From an uncultured Nitrospirota bacterium (GTDB lineage Bacteria; Nitrospirota; Nitrospiria; 2-01-FULL-66-17), in the NCBI GenBank assembly GCA_964570625.1, contig CAZMYW010000019.1:11842-75841 (forward strand): a DNA stretch of 64,000 bases, written 5' to 3'. A model generated the notes under the pieces. The model saw only the letters and a program-made list of their open reading frames with translations, was not told the DNA's origin and ran no database searches. Every line of letters starts with the position of its first letter. The first letter of the stretch is position 1. Both the position numbers and the translations under genes were made by a program. This document shows, piece by piece, positions 9,617 through 56,895 of this stretch.

Positions 9617-9692
9617 GGGGGGTTAGCTCAGTTGGGAGAGCGGCTGGTTCGCAATCAGCAGGTCACCGGTTCGATCCCGGTACCCTCCACCA
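9617..9692 (+). tRNA. tRNA-Ala (anticodon CGC)
   Basis: Hand-folded to 76 nt. Acceptor GGGGGGT/ACCCTCC with the G3:U70 Ala identity pair. D-arm GCTC-AGTTGGGA-GAGC. Anticodon stem GCTGG/TCAGC, loop TTCGCAA. T-arm ACCGG-TTCGATC-CCGGT. Encoded CCA. Confidence 0.85.
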
Positions 9693-9841: not shown

Positions 9842-10729
9842 TTACAGGCGGGCGAGGCGTGTTTCGAGTTCGGCGAGACTGTCGACCACATCAAGATGGT
9901 GGGACGTCAAGATTCCCTGGATCGTCGCGCTGGCCTGGCCGCCGACCCAGACTGGACAACGCGGTTTGACATGGGAGACCAGCTCCCTCGCCAGGGTGTC
10001 GGCCTCGGTCTCGCCGATCGTAACCGTCAACGAGACCAGCGCCACGGCCGCCGTCACACCGTGACACATCGCAGCCAACGCTGGAACGGGAACCCTGGCG
10101 CCGAGGTAGTGCACCCGATGGCCCCGAAGCTTGCATAGATACGCCACGACGTGGGCGCCCATCTCGTGCAACTCCTCCGGCGCGCAAGCCACCACGACTC
10201 GCAGACCAGCTTCATTGTCCGGCAACTGGTTCATCGCCGCGAACAGCTTATGCTGGACCTGTTTCGTCACATAGTGCTCCACCGAAACATCCAGCTTCGA
10301 CTCGGCCCACAGCTCCCCCACTCGGATCTGCAGCGGCACTAAGATTCCCCTTAACGCCTGGTCAAAGGGAATCACGGCCACCGCGCCGTTGAGGCGCGCC
10401 TCAAACGCCGCGGGATTCAAGGGGGTGAGAGCCGACTCGAGCTCGGCGAGCACTCGGGCGTAGATTCCCGGCGGCGCGGCGGGGATGGACGCACGGCCCT
10501 GAGCCCGCAGCTGTTCAGGCCCCAGCGCAGCCAGCTCACCAATGGATCGCCCCTTATCCAATTCTTCTTTGACGTAGCGTAGTAGCGCTACGTCGTCATC
10601 ACTATAGAGGCGGTATCGGTTGGCGCCTCGAATGGGCCGGACCAGCCCGAACCGCCGCTCCCAGACACGGATCACGTCCCTGGACAAGCCCGTAAGCTTG
10701 GCAACCCGATGGATTCTGTGTTGGTTCAC
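9842..10729 (-). CDS. MerR-family transcriptional regulator with C-terminal cobalamin (B12)-binding domain (CarH/LitR-like light-responsive repressor)
   Basis: The N-terminal MerR HTH is HRVAKLTGLSRDVIRVWERRFGL. The C-terminal region has an E-x-H-x-x-G B12-binding signature (EELHEMGAHVV) within a Rossmann-like stretch. Confidence 0.7.
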   Translation of the reverse strand: MNQHRIHRVAKLTGLSRDVIRVWERRFGLVRPIRGANRYRLYSDDDVALLRYVKEELDKGRSIGELAALGPEQLRAQGRASIPAAPPGIYARVLAELESALTPLNPAAFEARLNGAVAVIPFDQALRGILVPLQIRVGELWAESKLDVSVEHYVTKQVQHKLFAAMNQLPDNEAGLRVVVACAPEELHEMGAHVVAYLCKLRGHRVHYLGARVPVPALAAMCHGVTAAVALVSLTVTIGETEADTLARELVSHVKPRCPVWVGGQASATIQGILTSHHLDVVDSLAELETRLARL

Positions 10730-10779
10730 GTCAACATAATATACTGATAACTAATGAATGTCAAAACAAATTATAAATA

Positions 10780-10860
10780 ACTATTGACACATTAGACAAC
10801 GCTGTGGTAACGTCCGGCATAACATTGGACAAACATAGGTCTCAAAACGAATGTCACCAA
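10780..10860 (+). promoter_or_regulatory. AT-rich divergent control region with repeated (C)ATT(A/G)GACAA elements and TTGACA -35-like hexamer
   Basis: ttgacacATTAGACAAcg ... acATTGGACAAacat was read directly. It lies between the B12-MerR gene and the FGE operon. Confidence 0.35.
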
Positions 10861-10879
10861 CCACGAAGGAGGCCGCACC

Positions 10880-11839
10880 ATGAACCGCAGAGCACGCAAC
10901 GTTCAACGAGTCTTGATCGCAACCCTGACACTCCTCGCCGGCGCCGCCGCGGGGGTCTATGCCGGGGACATCGAGGAAATGGTCTTGATCCCGTTCGGCG
11001 AATTCACGATGGGAGCGAGCCTGGAAGGCGACGACACCACCCATCAGGTCGTCCTGAATTCCTTCTATATCGATAAACACGAAGTCTCCAACGCGCGTTA
11101 TCAACGGTTCGTCGCGGCCACCGGGCATTCCCCTGCAGCGTACTCGGACGATCGGCGCTTGAACCTCCCCAACCACCCGGTGGTCGGCGTCAACTGGCAC
11201 GACGCCAAGGCATTTTGCGAGTGGGACGGAAAACGCCTTCCTACCGAAGCCGAGTGGGAGAAGGCAGCGAGGGGTCCCTCGAGCAACCTGTATCCATGGG
11301 GCAACGCGTTCAACGACAAGAATGCCAACTGCTGCAACATGAACGACTCGACCATGCCGGTGGACTCCCACCCTGAGGGCGCCAGCGAATATGGTGTCTA
11401 CCACATGGCAGGAAACGCCTATGAGTGGGTGCAGGACTGGTACGACCACCAGTACTACAACACAGTAAAGACAGTGCTGAACCCGCAGGGACCCAAGAAG
11501 GGCTACAACTGGGGCGCCTTGGGCGAAATGAGGGTCATCCGCGGCGGCTCATGGTTTGCGCCCAGCGGCTCGCTGACTACGACACACCGATTCTGGAACC
11601 AGCCCGAGAACAACTCTTATGGGATCGGGCTGGGATTTCGTTGCGCGAAAGATGCCGACAATCGATTCGACCAGACCAGTCGCGCGGCCTACAACAAGGC
11701 ACTGATCAAATTCGCGACCGAGAACTACCCGGAGGCCTTGGCGGCCATCGACGAAGCACTCAAGTCCGAGCCAGGAAACCGGGGGTACCTGGAGCTCAAG
11801 ATGGAAGTCACGAAGAAAGCAGCCCGCAAGCAGAAATAA
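10880..11839 (+). CDS. FGE-sulfatase (formylglycine-generating enzyme / SUMF1) family protein, secreted
   Basis: It has a signal peptide, NWHDAKAFCEW..KRLPTEAEWEKAARG, RGGSW and GFRCA motifs. Confidence 0.8.
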   Translation: MNRRARNVQRVLIATLTLLAGAAAGVYAGDIEEMVLIPFGEFTMGASLEGDDTTHQVVLNSFYIDKHEVSNARYQRFVAATGHSPAAYSDDRRLNLPNHPVVGVNWHDAKAFCEWDGKRLPTEAEWEKAARGPSSNLYPWGNAFNDKNANCCNMNDSTMPVDSHPEGASEYGVYHMAGNAYEWVQDWYDHQYYNTVKTVLNPQGPKKGYNWGALGEMRVIRGGSWFAPSGSLTTTHRFWNQPENNSYGIGLGFRCAKDADNRFDQTSRAAYNKALIKFATENYPEALAAIDEALKSEPGNRGYLELKMEVTKKAARKQK

Positions 11840-11900
11840 CGGTACCGAGCCGGAGGGGTCTTTACGACCCTCCGGCCCGCTTCAAGAGGAGGACTCTTTC

Positions 11901-12260
11901 ATGTACGCGCTCGCAAGCCCTGCTGTGAAGGCCTGGCTCCTAGCCTGGTGCATCGTGGCGTCGGCACCCGTCAGTCTGACGTATGCGCTGGATCCGGAAC
12001 GCCTCGCCTCAATCCAGGAGGCCCGGGCGGCGGTGAACCACGCTTGGGAGGTGTATCACCGTGCCGCGCTCTCCGGCACCCTGAAGTCCCCGGCGCTCCA
12101 AGTCAGCATCGAGAAGGACCTGCGCGCAGCCCGAGCGCTGCTCGCTGAAGTCGAGGCGACGGATGACCCCGTCGCAGTCGGCCTCTCCAACGGTTGGCTC
12201 AACCAGATCTACGATCTGACGGACCGGATCATGACCGAGAGCCAAAGGCCCAAACAGTGA
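11901..12260 (+). CDS. hypothetical small secreted protein
   Basis: 119 aa with a signal peptide. It sits between the two FGE paralogs. Confidence 0.4.
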   Translation: MYALASPAVKAWLLAWCIVASAPVSLTYALDPERLASIQEARAAVNHAWEVYHRAALSGTLKSPALQVSIEKDLRAARALLAEVEATDDPVAVGLSNGWLNQIYDLTDRIMTESQRPKQ

Positions 12261-13081
12261 ACACACGAGCGACACCGGTCCTGGTTCTCGTGGTCTTCGC
12301 GGCCGTGATGGCCGTCGCGCCGCCCCACACTGTGGCGGACCAGGCTCAGTCCCGACTTGGGCGCGACCCGGTGACCATGGTTGTGGTGCCGGCGGGCTGG
12401 TTTCTGATGGGGAGTTCGGACCCGGTGGATCAGAGCGACGAGCGCCCGCAACGAAAGGTGTATCTCGACGCTTTTTCCATCGACGCGGTTGAGGTGACAA
12501 CCGAACGCTACGGAGCCTTTGTCAGGGCCACGGGTCACGCATGGCCACCCAATCCCTACGGCCAAGGGACTATCGCGGACTCGGACGGGATCGGGGCGCT
12601 TCCCATCGTTCAAGTCACCTGGCACGATGCATTCGACTACTGCCGCTGGGCCGGAAAACAACTCCCCACCGAGGCGGAATGGGAAAAGGCCGCCCGCGGC
12701 ATCGATGGAAGAAGGTTCCCCTGGGGCAACGCACCACCCAATCCCGAACGGGCAAACTTCGCGCGGGAGTGGGACGGAAATGGCACCATGCGCTCAGTCG
12801 GAACGACGCCGGAGGGGCGCTCGCCGGACGGCGTCATGGACATGGCGGGAAACGTGCGGGAGTGGGTGGCGGATTGGTACCACCCCGAATATTACGCCGG
12901 CGCGCCCGAGCGGAACCCTCAAGGCCCGGGCGACGGGATCCTCAAGGTCATTCGCGGTGGATCGTGGCACAACGGGGCGAACGAGCTTCGAGTCACCGCC
13001 CGCCAGAAAGGCGGGTTCGCCCTGAAGACCGACGGCGTGGGATTTCGGTGCGCCAGGAACATCGAGGCGTCCCAGCGGTAG
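12257..13081 (+). CDS. FGE-sulfatase family protein, paralog 2
   Basis: It has VTWHDAFDYCRWAGKQLPTEAEWEKAARG, RGGSWHN and GFRCARN. The track ORF starts at 12194 (TTG), overlapping the previous gene. GTG around 12257 precedes the signal peptide VLVLVVFAAVMAVA. Confidence 0.75.
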   Translation: MNTRATPVLVLVVFAAVMAVAPPHTVADQAQSRLGRDPVTMVVVPAGWFLMGSSDPVDQSDERPQRKVYLDAFSIDAVEVTTERYGAFVRATGHAWPPNPYGQGTIADSDGIGALPIVQVTWHDAFDYCRWAGKQLPTEAEWEKAARGIDGRRFPWGNAPPNPERANFAREWDGNGTMRSVGTTPEGRSPDGVMDMAGNVREWVADWYHPEYYAGAPERNPQGPGDGILKVIRGGSWHNGANELRVTARQKGGFALKTDGVGFRCARNIEASQR

Positions 13082-13175
13082 CGAGCAGGACCGGAGTGTG
13101 ATGCGTAATGGATGTTCGATGCACGGTACGGCGGTTCGGTTTGCCGGAAACTTTTAACCCGTTCAACGGTGACGT

Positions 13176-13715
13176 ATGCGCCCAACCCTGATGGCTCACT
13201 TGATGCTCACTGCGCTGTTCCTCGGAGCTTGCGCAGGCATCCCGAAACATGTTCAACCCGTGGAGCGATTCGATCTGGCGCGCTACCTGGGCACCTGGTA
13301 CGAGATTGCCCGGCTCGATCACCGATTCGAGCGCGGGCTCACTAACGTCAGCGCTGCCTATACAATGCGCGACGACGGGGGCGTGCGGGTGGTCAACCGA
13401 GGGTTTCGCCCCGCCACCGGGGAATGGGAGGAAGCGATCGGCAAGGCCTATTTCGTCGGCGCGCCGAGCGCTGGAAGCCTCAAGGTGTCGTTCTTCGGCC
13501 CGTTTTATGGCGGGTACAACGTTATCGACCTGGATCACGACGGGTATCAATACGCGCTGGTCTGCGGGCCTTCGCGGTCGTATCTCTGGATCCTCGCACG
13601 GCAGCCCACACTGGAGGATGCCACGGTGCGCGCGTTGGTCGACACGGCCAGGGCCATGGGATTCGAGGTCGACAACCTTGTCTACGTGGCACAGGACAAG
13701 GGCGGAATGCCGTGA
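13176..13715 (+). CDS. blc: bacterial lipocalin (outer-membrane lipoprotein Blc)
   Basis: It has the lipocalin motif GTWYEIARL and a lipobox LGAC. Confidence 0.8.
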   Translation: MRPTLMAHLMLTALFLGACAGIPKHVQPVERFDLARYLGTWYEIARLDHRFERGLTNVSAAYTMRDDGGVRVVNRGFRPATGEWEEAIGKAYFVGAPSAGSLKVSFFGPFYGGYNVIDLDHDGYQYALVCGPSRSYLWILARQPTLEDATVRALVDTARAMGFEVDNLVYVAQDKGGMP

Positions 13716-14662
13716 GTACCGAACGTATTCGCATCGGCATCTCCAGTTGCCTCCTCGGGGAAGAGGTGCGTTACGACGGAGGCCACAAGCACAACGGCTA
13801 CATCACCGAAACCCTGGGGCAGTATTTCAGCTTCGTGCCCTATTGCCCCGAGGTGGCCATCGGGATGGGAGTCCCGCGCCAGCCGATTCGTCTTGTGCAG
13901 ATTGGCGGCAGCCCGCGCGCCCGTGGCGTTACCGACCCGAATCTGGATGTGACCGACGTGCTTGAGGCGTACGCGGAGCTCGTGGCGGTGACGCTGGGAG
14001 CGATCAGCGGGTATATCTTGAAAAAAGGGTCGCCGAGCTGTGGGATGGAGCGGGTCAGGCAGTACAGTCCCAAAGGGATGCCTGTCGCCAGCAGCGCCGG
14101 GATTTATGCACGCGTCATCATGACACGGCTCCCCGAGCTACCCTTCGAAGAAGAAGGGCGTCTGATGGACCCGGTCTTACGTGAGAACTTTGTCGAGCGG
14201 GTGTTCGTCTACCATCGCTGGCAGCAGCTGGTGGTAGACCGCCTCACGCCCAAAACGCTCGTCGAGTTTCACACCCGGCACAAGTTATTGGTGCTGGCGC
14301 ACGACGAACCGGCCTATCGCGCCCTGGGCCGGCTCGTGGCCGCGGCCGGAACAGACCCTATCGTGAACCTGGGCACGCGCTACATCAGGCGCCTGATGGA
14401 GGCCCTCAAGAAGCCGGCGACCCGCAAGCGCCACGCCAATGTCCTTCAGCACGTATTCGGTTTCTTCAAGAGCCAACTCGATGCAGCGGACAAGCGCGAG
14501 ATCGTGGACCTCGTCAACGCCTACCGACGCGGACAGGTGCCGCTGATCGTGCCGATCACCTTGCTTCGGCATTACCTGCGGCGCTTTCCCGATCCCTATC
14601 TCGCAAGCCAACACTATCTCGCCCCGCACCCTGACGAGTTGATGCTGCGAAACCAGATCTGA
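13712..14662 (+). CDS. DUF523/DUF1722 fusion protein (TudS-/YbgA-like)
   Basis: GTG 13712 overlaps the blc stop. The N-terminal DUF523-like part (GISSCLLGEEVRYDGGHK.., CPEV) is followed by a DUF1722-like helical part. The track ORF 13424.. runs through blc. Confidence 0.6.
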   Translation: MSTERIRIGISSCLLGEEVRYDGGHKHNGYITETLGQYFSFVPYCPEVAIGMGVPRQPIRLVQIGGSPRARGVTDPNLDVTDVLEAYAELVAVTLGAISGYILKKGSPSCGMERVRQYSPKGMPVASSAGIYARVIMTRLPELPFEEEGRLMDPVLRENFVERVFVYHRWQQLVVDRLTPKTLVEFHTRHKLLVLAHDEPAYRALGRLVAAAGTDPIVNLGTRYIRRLMEALKKPATRKRHANVLQHVFGFFKSQLDAADKREIVDLVNAYRRGQVPLIVPITLLRHYLRRFPDPYLASQHYLAPHPDELMLRNQI

Positions 14663-14812: not shown

Positions 14813-15346
14813 CTATTTTGATCCGGCCGCGGAACCCGCCATGGACCCCGCGATCACGCCGGCAACTACCCCGATGGCAATGGCGGTCGCGGACGCCGCG
14901 CTGGCCCTCTGCTTACTGATCGCGGCTCTCTGTTGGATCGCAGACATCTCATAATGAGGATCCGATTCGATTGAAATCGTCTGCTCGCGATCCACAAACC
15001 GCAAGAATTGCGCGTTGACCCCATAACAGGAGGTCCACACGTAGTCCGGTTGCTTCTCTCCTACGACGTTGATGACATCGGCGTTCAAGGCACATGCGTC
15101 AGCGATGACCGTCTTGAAGACGGCCCCTTCATCACATTGGTTAGGCATGAATTTGTCATGGATTTCTATATTGCCGAGCACGTGAATTTCTTGATCGGAA
15201 AAATGGAAATCTCTTTTTATGGGAACGTCACAAGATATCCCAACTTGGGAGGGATCCAGCACGTAACCATGCCTCGACACTTCCGCCGCACAGCCGCACA
15301 GGACAATAACGAGGCCGACATGAAGGGCTCGACTGATCTTCTTCAT
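14813..15346 (-). CDS. hypothetical lipoprotein
   Basis: It has a signal peptide plus a lipobox LCGC, Cys-rich. Confidence 0.45.
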   Translation of the reverse strand: MKKISRALHVGLVIVLCGCAAEVSRHGYVLDPSQVGISCDVPIKRDFHFSDQEIHVLGNIEIHDKFMPNQCDEGAVFKTVIADACALNADVINVVGEKQPDYVWTSCYGVNAQFLRFVDREQTISIESDPHYEMSAIQQRAAISKQRASAASATAIAIGVVAGVIAGSMAGSAAGSK

Positions 15347-15453
15347 AATCTTCGCCTCCTGGCAGACGCGTCATGGGCGCCACTCATGGCGGGATACCAA
15401 CAGCAGTCTGGACGGGGAGAATCTTCAATCTTTAGCTCCGCCGATTCATGATA

Positions 15454-15483
15454 TTGACAGAATTCTGTACAGTCACGTATAGT
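15454..15483 (+). promoter_or_regulatory. putative sigma70 promoter of TA operon (TTGACA-18-TATAGT)
   Basis: Read directly upstream of the antitoxin start. Confidence 0.35.
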
Positions 15484-15510
15484 GGTATCGTTTCGATCAG
15501 AGGCCTATCG

Positions 15511-15792
15511 ATGGCGATCTCCCCCAAAGACGTGATTCCTCTCACCAAAGCCCGTGCCACCCTCACGGAACTGTGCGAGCAAGTCCGCCGCACGCGGGGC
15601 GAGAAGCTGATCACCAAGAACGGCGAGAGCTGTGCGGCGCTGATCGACGCCGACCTCCTGGACCACTACCACCGCCTCGAACGTGAGCATATCCATCTCA
15701 CTCTGTTGGAAGAGGCCGTCAAGGGGATGACGGATGCGGCGGCTGGCAAGACCGTCTCGCTGAAGGCCCTCAAAACCCGGTATGGCCGATAG
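15511..15792 (+). CDS. type II antitoxin, Phd/YefM family
   Basis: About 93 aa (MAISPKDVIPLTKARATLTELCEQV..), overlapping the toxin gene by 11 nt. Confidence 0.65.
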   Translation: MAISPKDVIPLTKARATLTELCEQVRRTRGEKLITKNGESCAALIDADLLDHYHRLEREHIHLTLLEEAVKGMTDAAAGKTVSLKALKTRYGR

Positions 15793-16156
15793 GCGGTTCG
15801 CCTCGGTCTTTACCGACAACTTTCTCTCTAATCTGGACGCGATCGAGACCTTCCTCAAACCGGGGGGGATTGCGGCGTTTCGGCGTCTGATGGATCGACT
15901 CTTCGGCGATATTGTTCCGATGCTCGCCCGCTTTCCGGACAGCGGGCGACCCTTCCTCCACCATCCCGTCCGATCCCGCGAGGCGCAGACGCTCGTGCGC
16001 AAACTTCGCTCGCTGATGTCACCGACCGACCAAATCCGGGAGTTTGTCTTGGACGATTACCTCCTTCTGTATCTTCGTCGCCGAAGGAAGCTCTTGTTTC
16101 TGGCGATCAAACATCACCGCCAGTTGTCCTTTGACCTTCGGAGATTCTGGGCGTAA
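15782..16156 (+). CDS. type II toxin, ParE/RelE family
   Basis: 124 aa. The C-terminal ..EFVLDDYLLLYLRRRRKLLFLAIKHHRQL.. is typical of ParE. Confidence 0.6.
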   Translation: MADRRFASVFTDNFLSNLDAIETFLKPGGIAAFRRLMDRLFGDIVPMLARFPDSGRPFLHHPVRSREAQTLVRKLRSLMSPTDQIREFVLDDYLLLYLRRRRKLLFLAIKHHRQLSFDLRRFWA

Positions 16157-53913: not shown

Positions 53914-54207
53914 CTATTGGGCCGGAATGGTGATCAAGGGCAGCTTCTCGTTGCCGCCGGTGTCCGCCAGCGTGAAGAAAAACATGATCGCTGTCATCGC
54001 GCGCTTCGTTTGCCGGGCTTGAGCCGCTCCGGCTCCTTCCGCCACTACATCGGGGAATCCTGGACCGTCGGTCCGGCGACGCTGGCGGAGGGCGTTGGCG
54101 GAAAGGGCAACACGGAGCCGTCGTCGGCTGCCTGAGCTACGTCCGCTGTGAGCCAGCACGCAAGCGAGCGCGGCGGCGATGAGGATCGGCGTGTGGGTGG
54201 TTGTCAT
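53914..54207 (-). pseudogene. chimeric gene remnant: shared signal-peptide module + unrelated Arg-rich middle + last 33 codons of the 57009..58133 lipoprotein gene
   Basis: The C-terminal KRAMTAIMFFFTLADTGGNEKLPLITIPAQ is identical to the 57009 gene's C-terminus. About 100 nt are near-identical, including the downstream non-coding region. Confidence 0.6.
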
Positions 54208-54243
54208 GGTTCTGACCTTTCGGTGGTTGGCAGGATTTTCCCA

Positions 54244-55398
54244 TTAGGAGACTCCACGAAGGTGTTTTATCTTTTCAAAATCACATATTGAAATGACCTG
54301 AATGCGTTCACCCAAGTCATAATTTTCTTTCCCAGGGTAAATAACGAATAATTTTTCTAACTTTAAATCATGCACGGCAATTCGCATGGATGGTGTGAGG
54401 CTTGGACGATCACTGAGCTTGATCTCAAAGCCAATTTTTCTTCCATTCTTAAGAAAGAGAAGATCCAATTCCGCCCGATTATGGGTTGCCCAAAAATAGG
54501 CGGCATCCGGTTGTACCTGTTTGAATAAGTCCTCAATCACATATCCCTCCCAGGACATCCCGCGCTTCGAATGATCTCTAAAGTCTTTCTCGTTTTGAAT
54601 TCCAAGCAGCAAGTGTAAAAGTCCTGAATCACGGACATACACCTTGGGCGCCTTCACCTGTCGTTTGCCAAGATTTTCGTGCCATGGCTGAAGCTGACGC
54701 ACCATCAAAAGATGATCCAGATAATCCAGATATTTTCGTACCGTCGGCTGGCTCACTCCGAGCGATGACGCGGGATCAGCCGCGTTCCACATCTGACCAT
54801 GGCTGTGAGCCAGCATCGTCCAAAATCGGCGGAACATTGGCGCCGGTATGTTGAGTCCCATCTGTGGGACATCCCGCTCAAGAAACGTTTGAACAAATTC
54901 CTTACGCCAGGCGTAACTGATTGCATTGGTGCCGGCAAGAAATGACTGTGGAAATCCCCCACGGAACCAATGTGTTTTTAGTTTGCGATGCGTCGCCTCT
55001 TTGAGCGAAAAACCGCTCATGAAAATCGTTTCAACCCTTCCGGCAAGGGACTCGGACGACTGTTTTAAAAGCGCCGGACTTGCACTGCCTAAAATTAAAA
55101 ACTTGGCAGGCAATGGTTTGCGGTCTGAAAGCACGCGCAATAATGGGAACAGCTCCGGTTTACGATGAATTTCATCAATCACGACAAGTCCGCGAAGCCC
55201 CGCGAGCTCCGATTTGGCGTCTTCAAGACGCACCAAATCATCCGTGTCTTCCAAATCAAAATAATTCTTCTTCTCCGCAGATAAAAACTGCCGAGCAAGG
55301 GTTGTTTTGCCGCATTGACGCGGCCCCAGCAACACCACAACTCGGCTACGCTGAATCGCTTTTTGAACGTGTTCGATCAATTGTGGCCGTTTAATCAC
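54244..55398 (-). CDS. AAA+ ATPase with DUF4143 domain, copy 2 (low-GC, probably horizontally acquired)
   Basis: It has a Walker A GPRQCGKTT, Walker B VVIDEIH, KAPKVY and GFEIKLSD. Local GC is visibly about 45-48% against about 62% in the flanks. Confidence 0.75.
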   Translation of the reverse strand: MIKRPQLIEHVQKAIQRSRVVVLLGPRQCGKTTLARQFLSAEKKNYFDLEDTDDLVRLEDAKSELAGLRGLVVIDEIHRKPELFPLLRVLSDRKPLPAKFLILGSASPALLKQSSESLAGRVETIFMSGFSLKEATHRKLKTHWFRGGFPQSFLAGTNAISYAWRKEFVQTFLERDVPQMGLNIPAPMFRRFWTMLAHSHGQMWNAADPASSLGVSQPTVRKYLDYLDHLLMVRQLQPWHENLGKRQVKAPKVYVRDSGLLHLLLGIQNEKDFRDHSKRGMSWEGYVIEDLFKQVQPDAAYFWATHNRAELDLLFLKNGRKIGFEIKLSDRPSLTPSMRIAVHDLKLEKLFVIYPGKENYDLGERIQVISICDFEKIKHLRGVS

Positions 55399-55704
55399 GA
55401 CGGGAGTGTACCATGAAATATGAAACTATATATTTCAATTTTCATTATGTAATTTCACGGACCTGAAACAGCCCCGATCAGAAATCAAACCCCAATGCCA
55501 AATTCAGGCGGACATCATTTTTCTTCGGCACCACGCCGTCGGCCCCCGGGTTGTGGATATGCGGTGCGATCCCAGATTAACGACATGTCGAAATCGAACA
55601 CCCGGGTCAAGGCGGTCAACGCGAAGTTCCCAATCAGCAGAACCGCAGCGAGGCTCGCACGGGTCTTCGTGACATTCGGCAGTTCTTCGCCCTGGCCACC
55701 GCGA

Positions 55705-56895
55705 TCAGAACAATAGGACCTTGATCAGGTAGTCCACGACCTTCTCGAGCGGAACCATCGTCAGCGTGAGCGGCAGCAACGGCGCGGCCGTCACCACGGC
55801 GAGCCGCAGCACCACCTCTTTCCCGAACGGCACCCGCCGCATCTCGCGCACCACCGCGTAGCTGTTCCCGAGGTCGGCCAGCGACTGGATATCGCTGCTG
55901 CCCAACAGGCCCTCGTCCTTCGGCGCGCCTCCGCGGATCCACTTCGCCTCGAATTCCCGCACGTACCGGTTGACCAGCGAGCCGTACTCGCGCCGGCCCT
56001 GCCGCCACGCGCGCGTGAGGTGCGGCGTGAACAGGACAAGCGGGCTGAGGATGACCAGCACGAAGAAGGACACAAAGGCGACGATGTCGAGCTTGAAGGC
56101 CAACAGGCTCTGTCCCTCGAAAAAAATCCGGTTGGCGATCATCCCGGCGAGCAGGACGCCGTGGGCGAACAGGATTGCCTCAAAGGCGTAGGCGGTGTTG
56201 TCCAGAAACCCCATTCCACCGGTTCGATCCGCGTGGGTCGGTACGAGGTGCAGGTTCAATCGCGAAACGCGCCACACAAACCATATCCAGACGAAGAACC
56301 GCAGATACCACTGAAAGAAGATGAACTGAAAAAGCGGAATGCTCACAAAGACGTACCAGGACCCGGCGAGCGTCAGGGTGAGGCCCGCGCCCTCCGGGTG
56401 TGCAGACCAGGTCGCGGAATCAAGCGCGACTTGGGTTCTCCACAGCCACTGTCCCACCGTATAGACGAATACCGCCAACCCGCTTTGCACGATGACCGAG
56501 TTGACCACCCGCATGACCGAGTCGATCGCCGCGCGGAACGCCGGTCGATCTTCGGGAATCACGATGCCCCGGTCCACGAGCTGGTGGACCACGGATTGGA
56601 GCCGATTATGGGAGATCCGATCGGCGATGATCAGCACCGGCAGTGCAAGCAGATATCGGAGGTGCGCCTCGAAGTCGTACAGGAACGGAACCGTGATGGA
56701 GCCGCCCAGCGCGTGACCTTCGAGCGCCGACAGCAGCAGCAGCGGTAGCCACGCGATCAGGGCAATAAGTGCGACTCGTCGCCCCGCACGCCCTAGTTGG
56801 GGATCGGCGACCCCCGTCCGCAGGCACAGCCGATAGAGCGGCCCCTGCACCAGCGAGAACTCGGGCAACTCCTGGGAAGGCTCAGGATGAGTCAT
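55705..56895 (-). CDS. hypothetical polytopic membrane protein
   Basis: It has about 8 TM helices. Its start lies 3 nt downstream of the 57009 gene, so they are probably co-transcribed. Confidence 0.45.
   Translation of the reverse strand: MTHPEPSQELPEFSLVQGPLYRLCLRTGVADPQLGRAGRRVALIALIAWLPLLLLSALEGHALGGSITVPFLYDFEAHLRYLLALPVLIIADRISHNRLQSVVHQLVDRGIVIPEDRPAFRAAIDSVMRVVNSVIVQSGLAVFVYTVGQWLWRTQVALDSATWSAHPEGAGLTLTLAGSWYVFVSIPLFQFIFFQWYLRFFVWIWFVWRVSRLNLHLVPTHADRTGGMGFLDNTAYAFEAILFAHGVLLAGMIANRIFFEGQSLLAFKLDIVAFVSFFVLVILSPLVLFTPHLTRAWRQGRREYGSLVNRYVREFEAKWIRGGAPKDEGLLGSSDIQSLADLGNSYAVVREMRRVPFGKEVVLRLAVVTAAPLLPLTLTMVPLEKVVDYLIKVLLF

Follow-up and report, generated by a model that had tools for sequence, protein, structure and literature searches.

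A CarH-type coenzyme B12 regulator beside a putative light-responsive operon of FGE-like proteins, a lipocalin and RudS in Nitrospirota

The 64,000-nucleotide stretch of DNA analysed here (the window; contig CAZMYW010000019.1 of assembly GCA_964570625.1, positions 11,842 to 75,841) comes from an uncultured Nitrospirota bacterium and carries a gene for a cobalamin-binding MerR-type regulator. It is divergent from five genes encoding two proteins that resemble the formylglycine-generating enzyme (FGE), a small exported protein, a Blc-type lipocalin and a DUF523/DUF1722 fusion. Taken together, the data make it likely that a CarH-type coenzyme B12 light switch controls this operon and that its FGE-like products are not true FGEs. 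The operon is probably a light-derepressed photoprotection operon, as suggested by its candidate operator, its gene content and its relatives in other genomes.

The regulator, its promoters and a candidate operator

The regulator gene and the sequence elements in front of it are the following, in window coordinates.

9842-10729, minus strand: carH/litR-like gene, 295 aa, GTG start; MerR winged helix-turn-helix, four-helix bundle and Rossmann B12-binding domain
10736-10764, minus strand: regulator promoter-like sequence TTGACA-17-TATTAT (consensus scan, 11/12 match)
10784-10813, plus strand: predicted operon (FGE1) promoter; −35 TTGACA at 10784-10789, 18-nt spacer and TG-extended −10-like TGGTAACGT at 10805-10813
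10789-10832, plus strand: candidate CarH operator of 44 bp; four 11-bp units, DR1-dr2-dr3-DR4, in register

CarH proteins are defined by their recognition helix, an adenosyl-capping Wx9EH motif and the lower-ligand motif D/E-x-H-x2-G/P-x41-S-x-T/V-x22-27-GG; the Wx9EH motif separates them from CarA, a B12-binding MerR protein that does not sense light (PMC9304148). For comparison, a genome collection was scanned with the regulator alignment. This gave 80 loci from Nitrospirota, Ca. Nitrospira defluvii FP929003.1 among them; the best match of the scan stood at 58%. Two further non-redundant contigs brought the set to 82 loci (L-numbers designate individual relatives). The Pfam matches of the window regulator (MerR_1, 1.7e-14; B12-binding_2, 1.2e-6; B12-binding, 1.7e-10) agree with the initial annotation, which had described a MerR helix-turn-helix joined to an E-x-H-x-x-G cobalamin domain. 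The recognition helix reads RVWERRF at residues 21-27, with F in place of the Y of RxWERRY, and the regular expression R.WERR[YF] is matched by 92/93 distinct regulators of the related loci. Wx9EH is intact (W141-AESKLDVSV-E151-H152), aligns to W131/E141/H142 of the Thermus thermophilus protein (TtCarH) and is found in 93/93 of these regulators. A regular expression also matched the full lower-ligand motif, E186-L-H188-E-M-G191-x41-S233-L-T235-x27-G263-G264. Across 18 aligned homologues, W141, E151, H152 and H188 are invariant.

Among proteins of solved structure, the best phmmer matches are T. thermophilus LitR/CarH (3whp, 5c8d; E ~1e-20 over residues 5-268), and the Trp, the Glu-His pair and the ligand His are all in register in the alignment with TtCarH. 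The AlphaFold2 (AF2) model has a pLDDT of 87.6, and its top 12 Foldseek matches are all full-length TtCarH (5c8f/5c8d/5c8e first; E 5e-17 to 1e-12); isolated CarH cobalamin-binding domain chains superpose with a TM score (target) of ~0.8 and an rmsd of ~3 Å. Modelling, which the initial annotation had proposed for the C-terminal domain, recovers the CarH fold, and the predicted B12 ligand H188 is present. The suggested architecture of an AdoB12-dependent photoreceptor repressor is borne out by the CarH motifs, with TtCarH the best match by both sequence and fold. Homologues with names belong to Nitrospira, Nitrospirae or Nitrospirota, and automated JGI names label many of them 'light-induced transcriptional regulator'. 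By all sequence and fold criteria tried, save the NCBIfam model NF052513, the regulator is therefore predicted to be a CarH/LitR-type photoreceptor that uses adenosylcobalamin (AdoCbl, AdoB12).

The published CarH operator repeat is 5'-nnnnTnnACAn-3' (PMC9304148). The operator-repeat search of 10730-10879 suggested by the initial annotation found, across the operon promoter, direct repeats of 11 bp that are of CarH type and are kept in orthologous loci. Alignment with three 83%-identical relatives (L006-L008), together with k-mer counts in the 82 orthologous upstream regions, yielded the sequence ACATTRGACA, which with one additional base forms an 11-bp unit agreeing with the CarH repeat. Within the 64-kb window it occurs just twice at up to one mismatch, both times exactly, at 10789-10798 and 10822-10831, 33 nt apart. 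By number alone the motif is not enriched (3.2 copies expected from shuffles); it is position and conservation that lend the operator its significance. The two copies define DR1 (ACATTAGACAA, 10789-10799) and DR4 (ACATTGGACAA, 10822-10832), between which lie the pseudo-repeats dr2 (CGCTGTGGTAA) and dr3 (CGTCCGGCATA). DR1 abuts the −35 TTGACA, the −10-like TGGTAACGT falls inside dr2/dr3, and DR4 sits at the expected transcription start. The −35 box and the TGGTAAC of the operon promoter are both kept in L006.

In the 82 related loci (1.10 Mb non-redundant), 159 of the 198 exact motif copies (80%) are found in the 150 nt preceding regulator starts, which make up 1.1% of the bases; the remaining 39 are mostly upstream of regulators whose start was missed by the search pattern. 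In 49/54 pairs of neighbouring copies the distance is 21 or 22 nt, in two pairs 33 nt and in another two 43-44 nt, which puts the copies on one face of the helix. In many genomes, a repeat in the opposite orientation lies inside the spacer of the regulator's own promoter. Nitrospinaceae have different repeats, yet these are of the TnnACA type as well and directly follow the −35 box. We predict that 10789-10832 is a CarH-type operator to which the regulator binds.

The regulator's own promoter is kept in L006-L008. Its TATTAT box ends 6 nt ahead of the GTG, with no Shine-Dalgarno sequence and with the same spacing in these relatives; because this distance is so short, the regulator mRNA is probably leaderless. 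A 28-nt imperfect direct repeat (10730-10757 / 10760-10787; 71% identity, 30-nt spacing) overlaps this promoter and is not explained by the CarH repeats. As an operator it is unsupported, and it coincides with AT-rich promoter sequence and minus-strand TTGAC boxes.

The exported trio, the lipocalin and RudS

The five genes on the other side of the operator, with one hairpin between them, are listed below.

10880-11839, plus strand: FGE1, FGE-like type A, 319 aa; signal-like N-terminus, FGE-sulfatase fold, motif RGGSWFAPSGSLTTTHRFWNQPENNSYG and TPR-like helical tail
11846-11879, plus strand: GC-rich hairpin without a T-run, between FGE1 and the small open reading frame (ORF)
11901-12260, plus strand: small exported protein, 119 aa, no family; signal-like N-terminus and three-helix bundle
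12257-13081, plus strand: FGE2, FGE-like type C, 274 aa, GTG start; motif RGGSWH...ARxKGGFALKTDG
13191-13715, plus strand: Blc-type outer-membrane lipocalin, 174 aa; Lipocalin_2 6e-43, LFLGAC lipobox read from the sequence
13712-14662, plus strand: putative RudS-type tRNA 4-thiouridine desulfidase, 316 aa; TudS/DUF523 (2-thiour_desulf) and DUF1722

All six ORFs of the locus were confirmed at their positions. The Pfam and ORF checks uphold the annotated arrangement, with the regulator on the minus strand facing five co-oriented genes with the domains as named. Gene starts were adopted from independent gene calls on the identical public contig, which begin FGE2 at 12257 (GTG), the Blc gene at 13191 and the DUF523/DUF1722 gene at 13712; the earlier ORF starts had been 12194 for FGE2 and 13176 for Blc. 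The FGE2 start thereby overlaps the small-ORF stop by 4 nt, as does the DUF523/DUF1722 gene start the Blc stop. The regulator and FGE1 are separated by 150 nt. The cluster is less tight than first described (overlaps, or gaps of 60 nt or less, throughout): there are 61 nt between FGE1 and the small ORF and 94-109 nt between FGE2 and Blc (109 nt with the adopted start). Both FGE-like proteins and the small protein had been called secreted. Hydrophobic N-termini on all three agree with this, as far as a reading by eye goes; also by eye, Blc has an LGAC lipobox and the other exported proteins have AxA-like cleavage sites.

FGE1 and FGE2 are paralogues (~41% identity) that match the FGE-sulfatase family PF03781 at 1.7e-54 and 1.1e-55, respectively. 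C336 and C341 of human FGE are the copper-binding catalytic cysteines. When FGE1 is aligned with human FGE (1y1e; E 1e-36), both positions are non-Cys (GGSWFAPSGSL), and both are likewise replaced in FGE2 when aligned with Streptomyces FGE (6muj; E 3e-36; GGSWHNGANEL). The catalytic pair is also missing from 187/187 distinct aligned paralogues of the related loci, where the two structural Cys alone are conserved. For want of a Cu-binding Cys pair the trio is not a formylglycine-generating system, and the proposal that the module couples sulfatase maturation or another FGE-type Cys oxidation to light was rejected on this ground. No sulfatase domain was found among the cluster genes or in the Pfam-annotated related Nitrospira/Nitrospinota operons, the rest of the window and the genome being unscreened. 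Pfam detects no DinB domain on FGE1 or FGE2, so that they are not EgtB/OvoA, and the NCBIfam models for GldK, EgtB, SenA and PvdO gave 50-119 bits against cut-offs of 350-500. The two types have signatures of their own: RGGSWxAPxxSLxTxHRFWNQPxNNSYG and a helical tail in type A (in FGE1 this C-terminal tail gives weak, sub-threshold TPR matches in Pfam), and RGGSWH...ARxKGGFALxT in type C.

The small protein has no Pfam or NCBIfam match. In its AF2 model (pLDDT 68), residues 1-28 are disordered and helices span residues 32-58, 64-86 and 90-115; PDB fold matches are generic three-helix bundles only (best E 0.74). Its core, AWEVYHRAALxGTxxSP, is invariant and contains the one invariant His. Homology to SMBP, the Nitrosomonas small metal-binding protein, was suggested by the UniRef name of a Nitrospira moscoviensis homologue and was rejected (hhalign probability 2.8%, no Pfam match, a single invariant His). 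A homologue is flanked by FGE-like genes in 54/82 loci, and also in Nitrospinota. The 4-nt overlap with the type C gene is kept in 47/54 pairs, which suggests coupled synthesis of the two proteins. Small protein and type C are probably translationally coupled and probably form a periplasmic complex, which may comprise the whole trio.

The DUF523-DUF1722 fusion is identified by its sequence motifs as RudS, a tRNA 4-thiouridine (s4U) desulfidase. It combines PF04463 (4.4e-36) and PF08349 (1.3e-43) in one protein and has just three Cys (13/45/110), spaced 32/65 like the [4Fe-4S] ligands of the characterised RudS_KT (17/49/114). In addition, C-P-E47 corresponds to the catalytic Glu51 of RudS_KT and S107-P-S109-C110 to its catalytic serines Ser111/Ser113. 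RudS removes s4U from tRNA, shortens the growth delay caused by UVA and is reported from LitR-controlled light operons beside photolyase (PMC11417400). The initial annotation had named DUF1722 as a photolyase partner; in most Nitrospira CarH-linked operons the homologue directly follows the photolyase gene.

The lipocalin scores 240 bits with the Blc subfamily model of NCBIfam, slightly under its cut-off of 267. Its gene is absent from the other 82 CarH loci and is therefore a lineage-specific addition. In Chryseobacterium lacus, light induces a lipocalin gene (PMC7064467).

As to punctuation of the cluster, intrinsic terminators inside it amount to weak intragenic matches only. The hairpin at 11846-11879 (CCGGAGGG...CCCTCCGG) belongs to a region, 11838-11900, with an RNA fold of −27.2 kcal/mol (z = −2.2), and may set differential mRNA stability, as a stabiliser or processing site. 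In the FGE2-Blc gap, a short weak GC hairpin is followed by the U-run AAACUUUU; the region is no more stable than shuffled sequence (z = +1.15), and neither a promoter-like site (consensus scan) nor a CarH repeat (up to one mismatch) was found there.

Related loci and chromosomal surroundings

An FGE-like gene is divergent from CarH, within 2.5 kb, in 56 of the 60 loci having more than 3 kb of upstream sequence. As the pairing recurs this often, the arrangement is not due to chance. The question raised by the initial annotation, whether orthologous FGE genes are linked to B12-MerR regulators elsewhere, is thereby answered in the affirmative for Nitrospirota, and the same holds for Nitrospinota. 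Such cargo had been considered unusual, and so it is for CarH regulons generally, but within these two phyla it is the rule.

Where more than 9.5 kb of upstream sequence is available, a co-directional photolyase gene is present in 37/44 loci and RudS in 27/44. By BLAST labels, the Nitrospira operon begins with a 97-aa zinc-ribbon protein, FGE-like A, (NmrA/DUF2867), FGE-like A', the small protein and FGE-like C, and continues with an epimerase/DUF1731 protein, (redoxin), DUF4149, PDZ, DNA photolyase and RudS. The first of these genes (L002:8977-9270 (-); ~60 loci) encodes a protein of ~97 aa with a zinc-ribbon-like C-x-R-C-G-G...R-C-V-Q-C-G pattern. It has no Pfam or NCBIfam match, is missing in the window operon and could be a co-regulator. 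In two intermediate Nitrospirota metagenome-assembled genomes (L013:5273-5968 (-) and L010:1610-2308 (-)), the photolyase is replaced by a Pyr_excise-DUF1722 fusion. Pyr_excise is a T4 endonuclease V-like pyrimidine-dimer DNA glycosylase, an unusual partner of DUF1722 that is again tied to the repair of UV damage.

Many Nitrospira also carry a second CarH paralogue with ACATTRGACA repeats (L002:18062-19726, L015, L023, L061, L070, L077 and L082-L084). Transcribed away from this paralogue are genes for a multihaem cytochrome of the NapC/NirT type and for a fusion of cytochrome c with an FGE-like protein; the window has no such paralogue. Further CarH repeats (L002:14940-14949; L029:5223-5254) stand upstream of a small ORF - SMBP - katG unit, and the catalase-peroxidase KatG may be part of the Nitrospira light regulon.

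A metagenome scan and a further protein search located the module in Nitrospinota (L096:5409-11926, Nitrospinaceae GCA_021604505.1; L097:7184-10915; L092:1-5508). Facing away from CarH, these contigs carry DUF4399 - FGE-like - small protein (126-129 aa) - FGE-like (- FGE-like) - cytochrome c. In L096 and L092, though not in L097, the gene immediately after CarH is that for RudS. More distant regulators have other neighbours: a CarH of 32% identity is found in a crtB/crtI carotenoid cluster, and an FGE neighbour is absent at Chloroflexi CarH and at a third CarH paralogue of a Nitrospirota metagenome-assembled genome. The FGE-like/small/FGE-like trio is the conserved core of the CarH-linked module. 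A search of the 64-kb window returned no photolyase, NmrA/DUF2867, epimerase/DUF1731, redoxin, DUF4149, PDZ, DCC1, KatG, NapC/NirT or second CarH. By gene content, the window cluster appears to be a condensed form of a regulon common to two phyla known for nitrite oxidation, consisting of the trio and RudS with Blc added.

The cluster is located in the core chromosome of a Nitrospirota organism. It is flanked upstream by the housekeeping genes purM and purN and a gene for a TPR protein, and the base composition around it is unremarkable. A tRNA-Ala(CGC) gene at 9617-9692 (+) converges on the regulator gene, with 150 nt between it and the 3' end of the latter. Downstream of the cluster come an unassigned convergent ORF (14813-15346) and a PhdYefM-type antitoxin/ParE-type toxin pair at 15448-16156 (+) with its own strong promoter-like site at 15454-15483. 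Farther away, a low-GC patch at 54001-56000 (0.53 versus ~0.62) is possibly acquired DNA; it includes the gene of an AAA_14/DUF4143 ATPase (54244-55398 (-)) together with an unassigned ORF of 433 aa.

Interpretation and comparison with known systems

By analogy with CarH, we infer repression in the dark and release in the light through AdoCbl-dependent oligomers. In the dark, the AdoCbl-bound regulator would oligomerise on the 44-bp DR1-dr2-dr3-DR4, which reaches from the −35 box of the FGE1 promoter to ~+11, and block RNA polymerase. Light would photolyse the Co-C bond, the oligomer would dissociate and the operon would be transcribed; absence of B12 would derepress it too. From the cargo genes we infer a response to light or UV damage. 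In the cytoplasm, RudS would strip UVA-sensitive s4U from tRNA and so pre-empt s4U8-C13 crosslinks, lessening growth arrest. At the outer membrane, Blc probably deals with damaged or lyso-lipids, and the other envelope proteins would act on membrane damage; in the relatives, photolyase or glycosylase would repair dimers. For the exported trio we offer only a tentative suggestion, that the complex binds or redox-processes a periplasmic component that is damaged or dangerous in the light. This guess is prompted by two things: relatives are repeatedly fused or adjacent to c-type cytochromes, and the trio is restricted to the CarH regulons of nitrite oxidizers whose respiratory machinery lies in the periplasm.

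Several points weigh against a light-controlled operon of this kind. NF052513, the CarH equivalog of NCBIfam, scores 107.8 bits against a cut-off of 400; the regulator belongs to the CarH family by motifs and fold but is no equivalog of the curated CarH set. A light response, DNA binding and chromophore of Nitrospirota CarH are attributed by homology. The −10 element of the operon is weak (3/6) and below the pass level of the promoter scan, so that the promoter is one read from the sequence, and dr2 and dr3 depart from the TnnACA core. The regulator promoter in the window has only the degenerate repeat TCATTAGTTAT, which makes autoregulation doubtful here. A single transcript for the FGE module and Blc-RudS is a prediction, given the 109-nt gap with its weak hairpin and short U-run. 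The sequence data contain no pointer to a substrate of the FGE-like proteins. Finally, the window cluster has neither photolyase nor cytochrome, nor did the search of the remaining 64 kb find one, and the redox idea is for this reason borrowed from relatives.

The light signal itself might be questioned: the regulator could be B12-responsive or CarA-like, with the operon answering to cobalamin supply or another signal. Any CarH needs AdoCbl for repression, so that B12 scarcity derepresses as well; B12-binding MerR proteins that do not sense light exist, CarA being an example (PMC9304148), and some nitrite oxidizers are B12 auxotrophs, N. marina being reported to require 'exogenous vitamin B12' (PMC8115632). 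We regard this as improbable, as Wx9EH, the discriminator between CarH and CarA, is intact and invariant, and the linked cargo across lineages (photolyase, pyrimidine-dimer glycosylase, RudS) concerns light and UV damage. It is somewhat easier to imagine, if still unlikely, that CarH controls FGE1-small-FGE2 only and that Blc and RudS form a separate downstream transcription unit. The 94-109-nt gap with its short GC hairpin and AAACUUUU would allow this; the absence of Blc from the 82 related loci points to a recent insertion, and in Nitrospinota RudS is transcribed with the regulator and not with the FGE module. However, the gap holds no promoter-like site or CarH repeat, its hairpin does not exceed shuffled sequence in stability, the five genes are co-oriented with the next gene convergent, and in all lineages examined RudS either belongs to the CarH-linked operon or is a neighbour of CarH.

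The remaining alternatives concern the trio. That the paralogues are functional formylglycine-generating or Cys-oxidising enzymes, with light controlling sulfatase maturation or periplasmic thiol chemistry, is highly improbable. FGE-sulfatase homology is strong, the best matches of solved structure are to human and Streptomyces FGE (E ~1e-36), and JGI names a 90%-cluster relative 'formylglycine-generating enzyme required for sulfatase activity'; however, the copper-ligand Cys pair is gone from FGE1, FGE2 and the 187 paralogues, which keep the structural Cys alone, the cluster and the Pfam-annotated operons contain no sulfatase gene, and all NCBIfam equivalog scores are far under their cut-offs. 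More credible, though we would not favour it, is a non-enzymatic trio, in which the periplasmic complex would serve for binding, as a scaffold or as an inhibitor and shield a target in the envelope, without being a redox enzyme. The FGE fold is structural in PorK/GldK (PDB matches), type A bears a TPR-like tail, the three-helix partner has one invariant His only, and FGE-like T6SS immunity proteins have been reported in a preprint (bioRxiv 10.1101/2021.05.21.445229). Against this stands the recurrent fusion or adjacency of the relatives' module to cytochrome c and NapC/NirT-type cytochromes, which points to electron transfer. A CarH-type switch over an operon with FGE-like proteins that are not FGEs remains the explanation we prefer.

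The regulator type, the operator logic and the light-linked RudS are already known. What appears to be new is that, across two nitrite-oxidizer phyla, a CarH regulon includes a periplasmic FGE-fold module that is conserved and uncharacterised. Searchable papers, outside which many subscription papers lie, contained no mention of CarH/LitR in connection with Nitrospira or Nitrospina, nor any link between a light regulon and FGE-like genes, and those on Nitrospira light responses, photolyases and photoinhibition do not mention a photoreceptor or light regulon. Light inhibition of nitrification, and of nitrite oxidizers above all, is a classical observation that has been invoked for the primary nitrite maximum. 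With low confidence, we propose that the trio is an unrecognised photoprotection or repair system of nitrite oxidizers, switched by a B12 photoreceptor, wired to c-type cytochromes and guarding or restoring the periplasmic nitrite-oxidising and electron-transport machinery. If so, it would provide a molecular handle on the photoinhibition of nitrite oxidation, and light sensing in B12-auxotrophic nitrite oxidizers would hinge on external B12. The analysis predicts a conserved CarH photoreceptor in Nitrospirota and Nitrospinota, its operator sequence, and a regulon that comprises RudS, photolyase or a dimer glycosylase, envelope proteins and possibly katG; existing cultures allow direct tests of light sensing in nitrite oxidizers. 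The automated name 'formylglycine-generating enzyme required for sulfatase activity' needs correcting for such genes, and an exported FGE-fold module that cannot be FGE is a target in the search for a new activity of the fold.

Compared with known systems, the FGE-like proteins share with SUMF1/FGE, PvdO, PorK/GldK and the C-domain of EgtB the FGE-sulfatase fold, GNxxEW, RGGSW, GFRC and the structural Cys pair, and like PvdO they appear to be exported. They differ from these in their own motifs (HRFWNQPxNNSYG and GGSWH...GGFALxT) and in an obligatory small three-helix partner. RudS here resembles P. putida RudS (PP_0741) in the two-domain fusion, the [4Fe-4S] Cys spacing, the Glu at C+2, S-x-S-C and the light-regulator neighbourhood; it differs in being a ~316-aa protein of Nitrospirota whose activity is predicted. 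DUF1722 (RudS/YbgA) is linked to photolyase both in the P. putida PplR1-PhrB-RudS operon and in E. coli ybgA-phr, the former being also tied to a MerR/LitR-family light regulator, and the photolyase-RudS order of most Nitrospira loci resembles ybgA-phr neighbourhoods. The window operon, in contrast, has RudS without photolyase and adds the FGE-like trio and Blc. PplR1 is a class II LitR; proteins of this class have no Rossmann B12 domain and act with LOV partners (PMC9758184), whereas the window regulator is of class I. With TtCarH and other class I LitRs it shares the three-domain architecture, RxWERR(Y/F), the Wx9EH cap and the E-x-H-x2-G...SxT...GG motif, as well as 11-bp nnnnTnnACAn repeats over the −35 box and a position divergent from the target operon. 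Identity to TtCarH is ~25%, and the cargo does not consist of carotenoid genes as it does there; photochemistry and oligomer of the window regulator are predicted. The TtCarH operator is made of three contiguous repeats, whereas here a longer, specific 10-mer, ACATTRGACA, is found in strong copies two to three helical turns apart.

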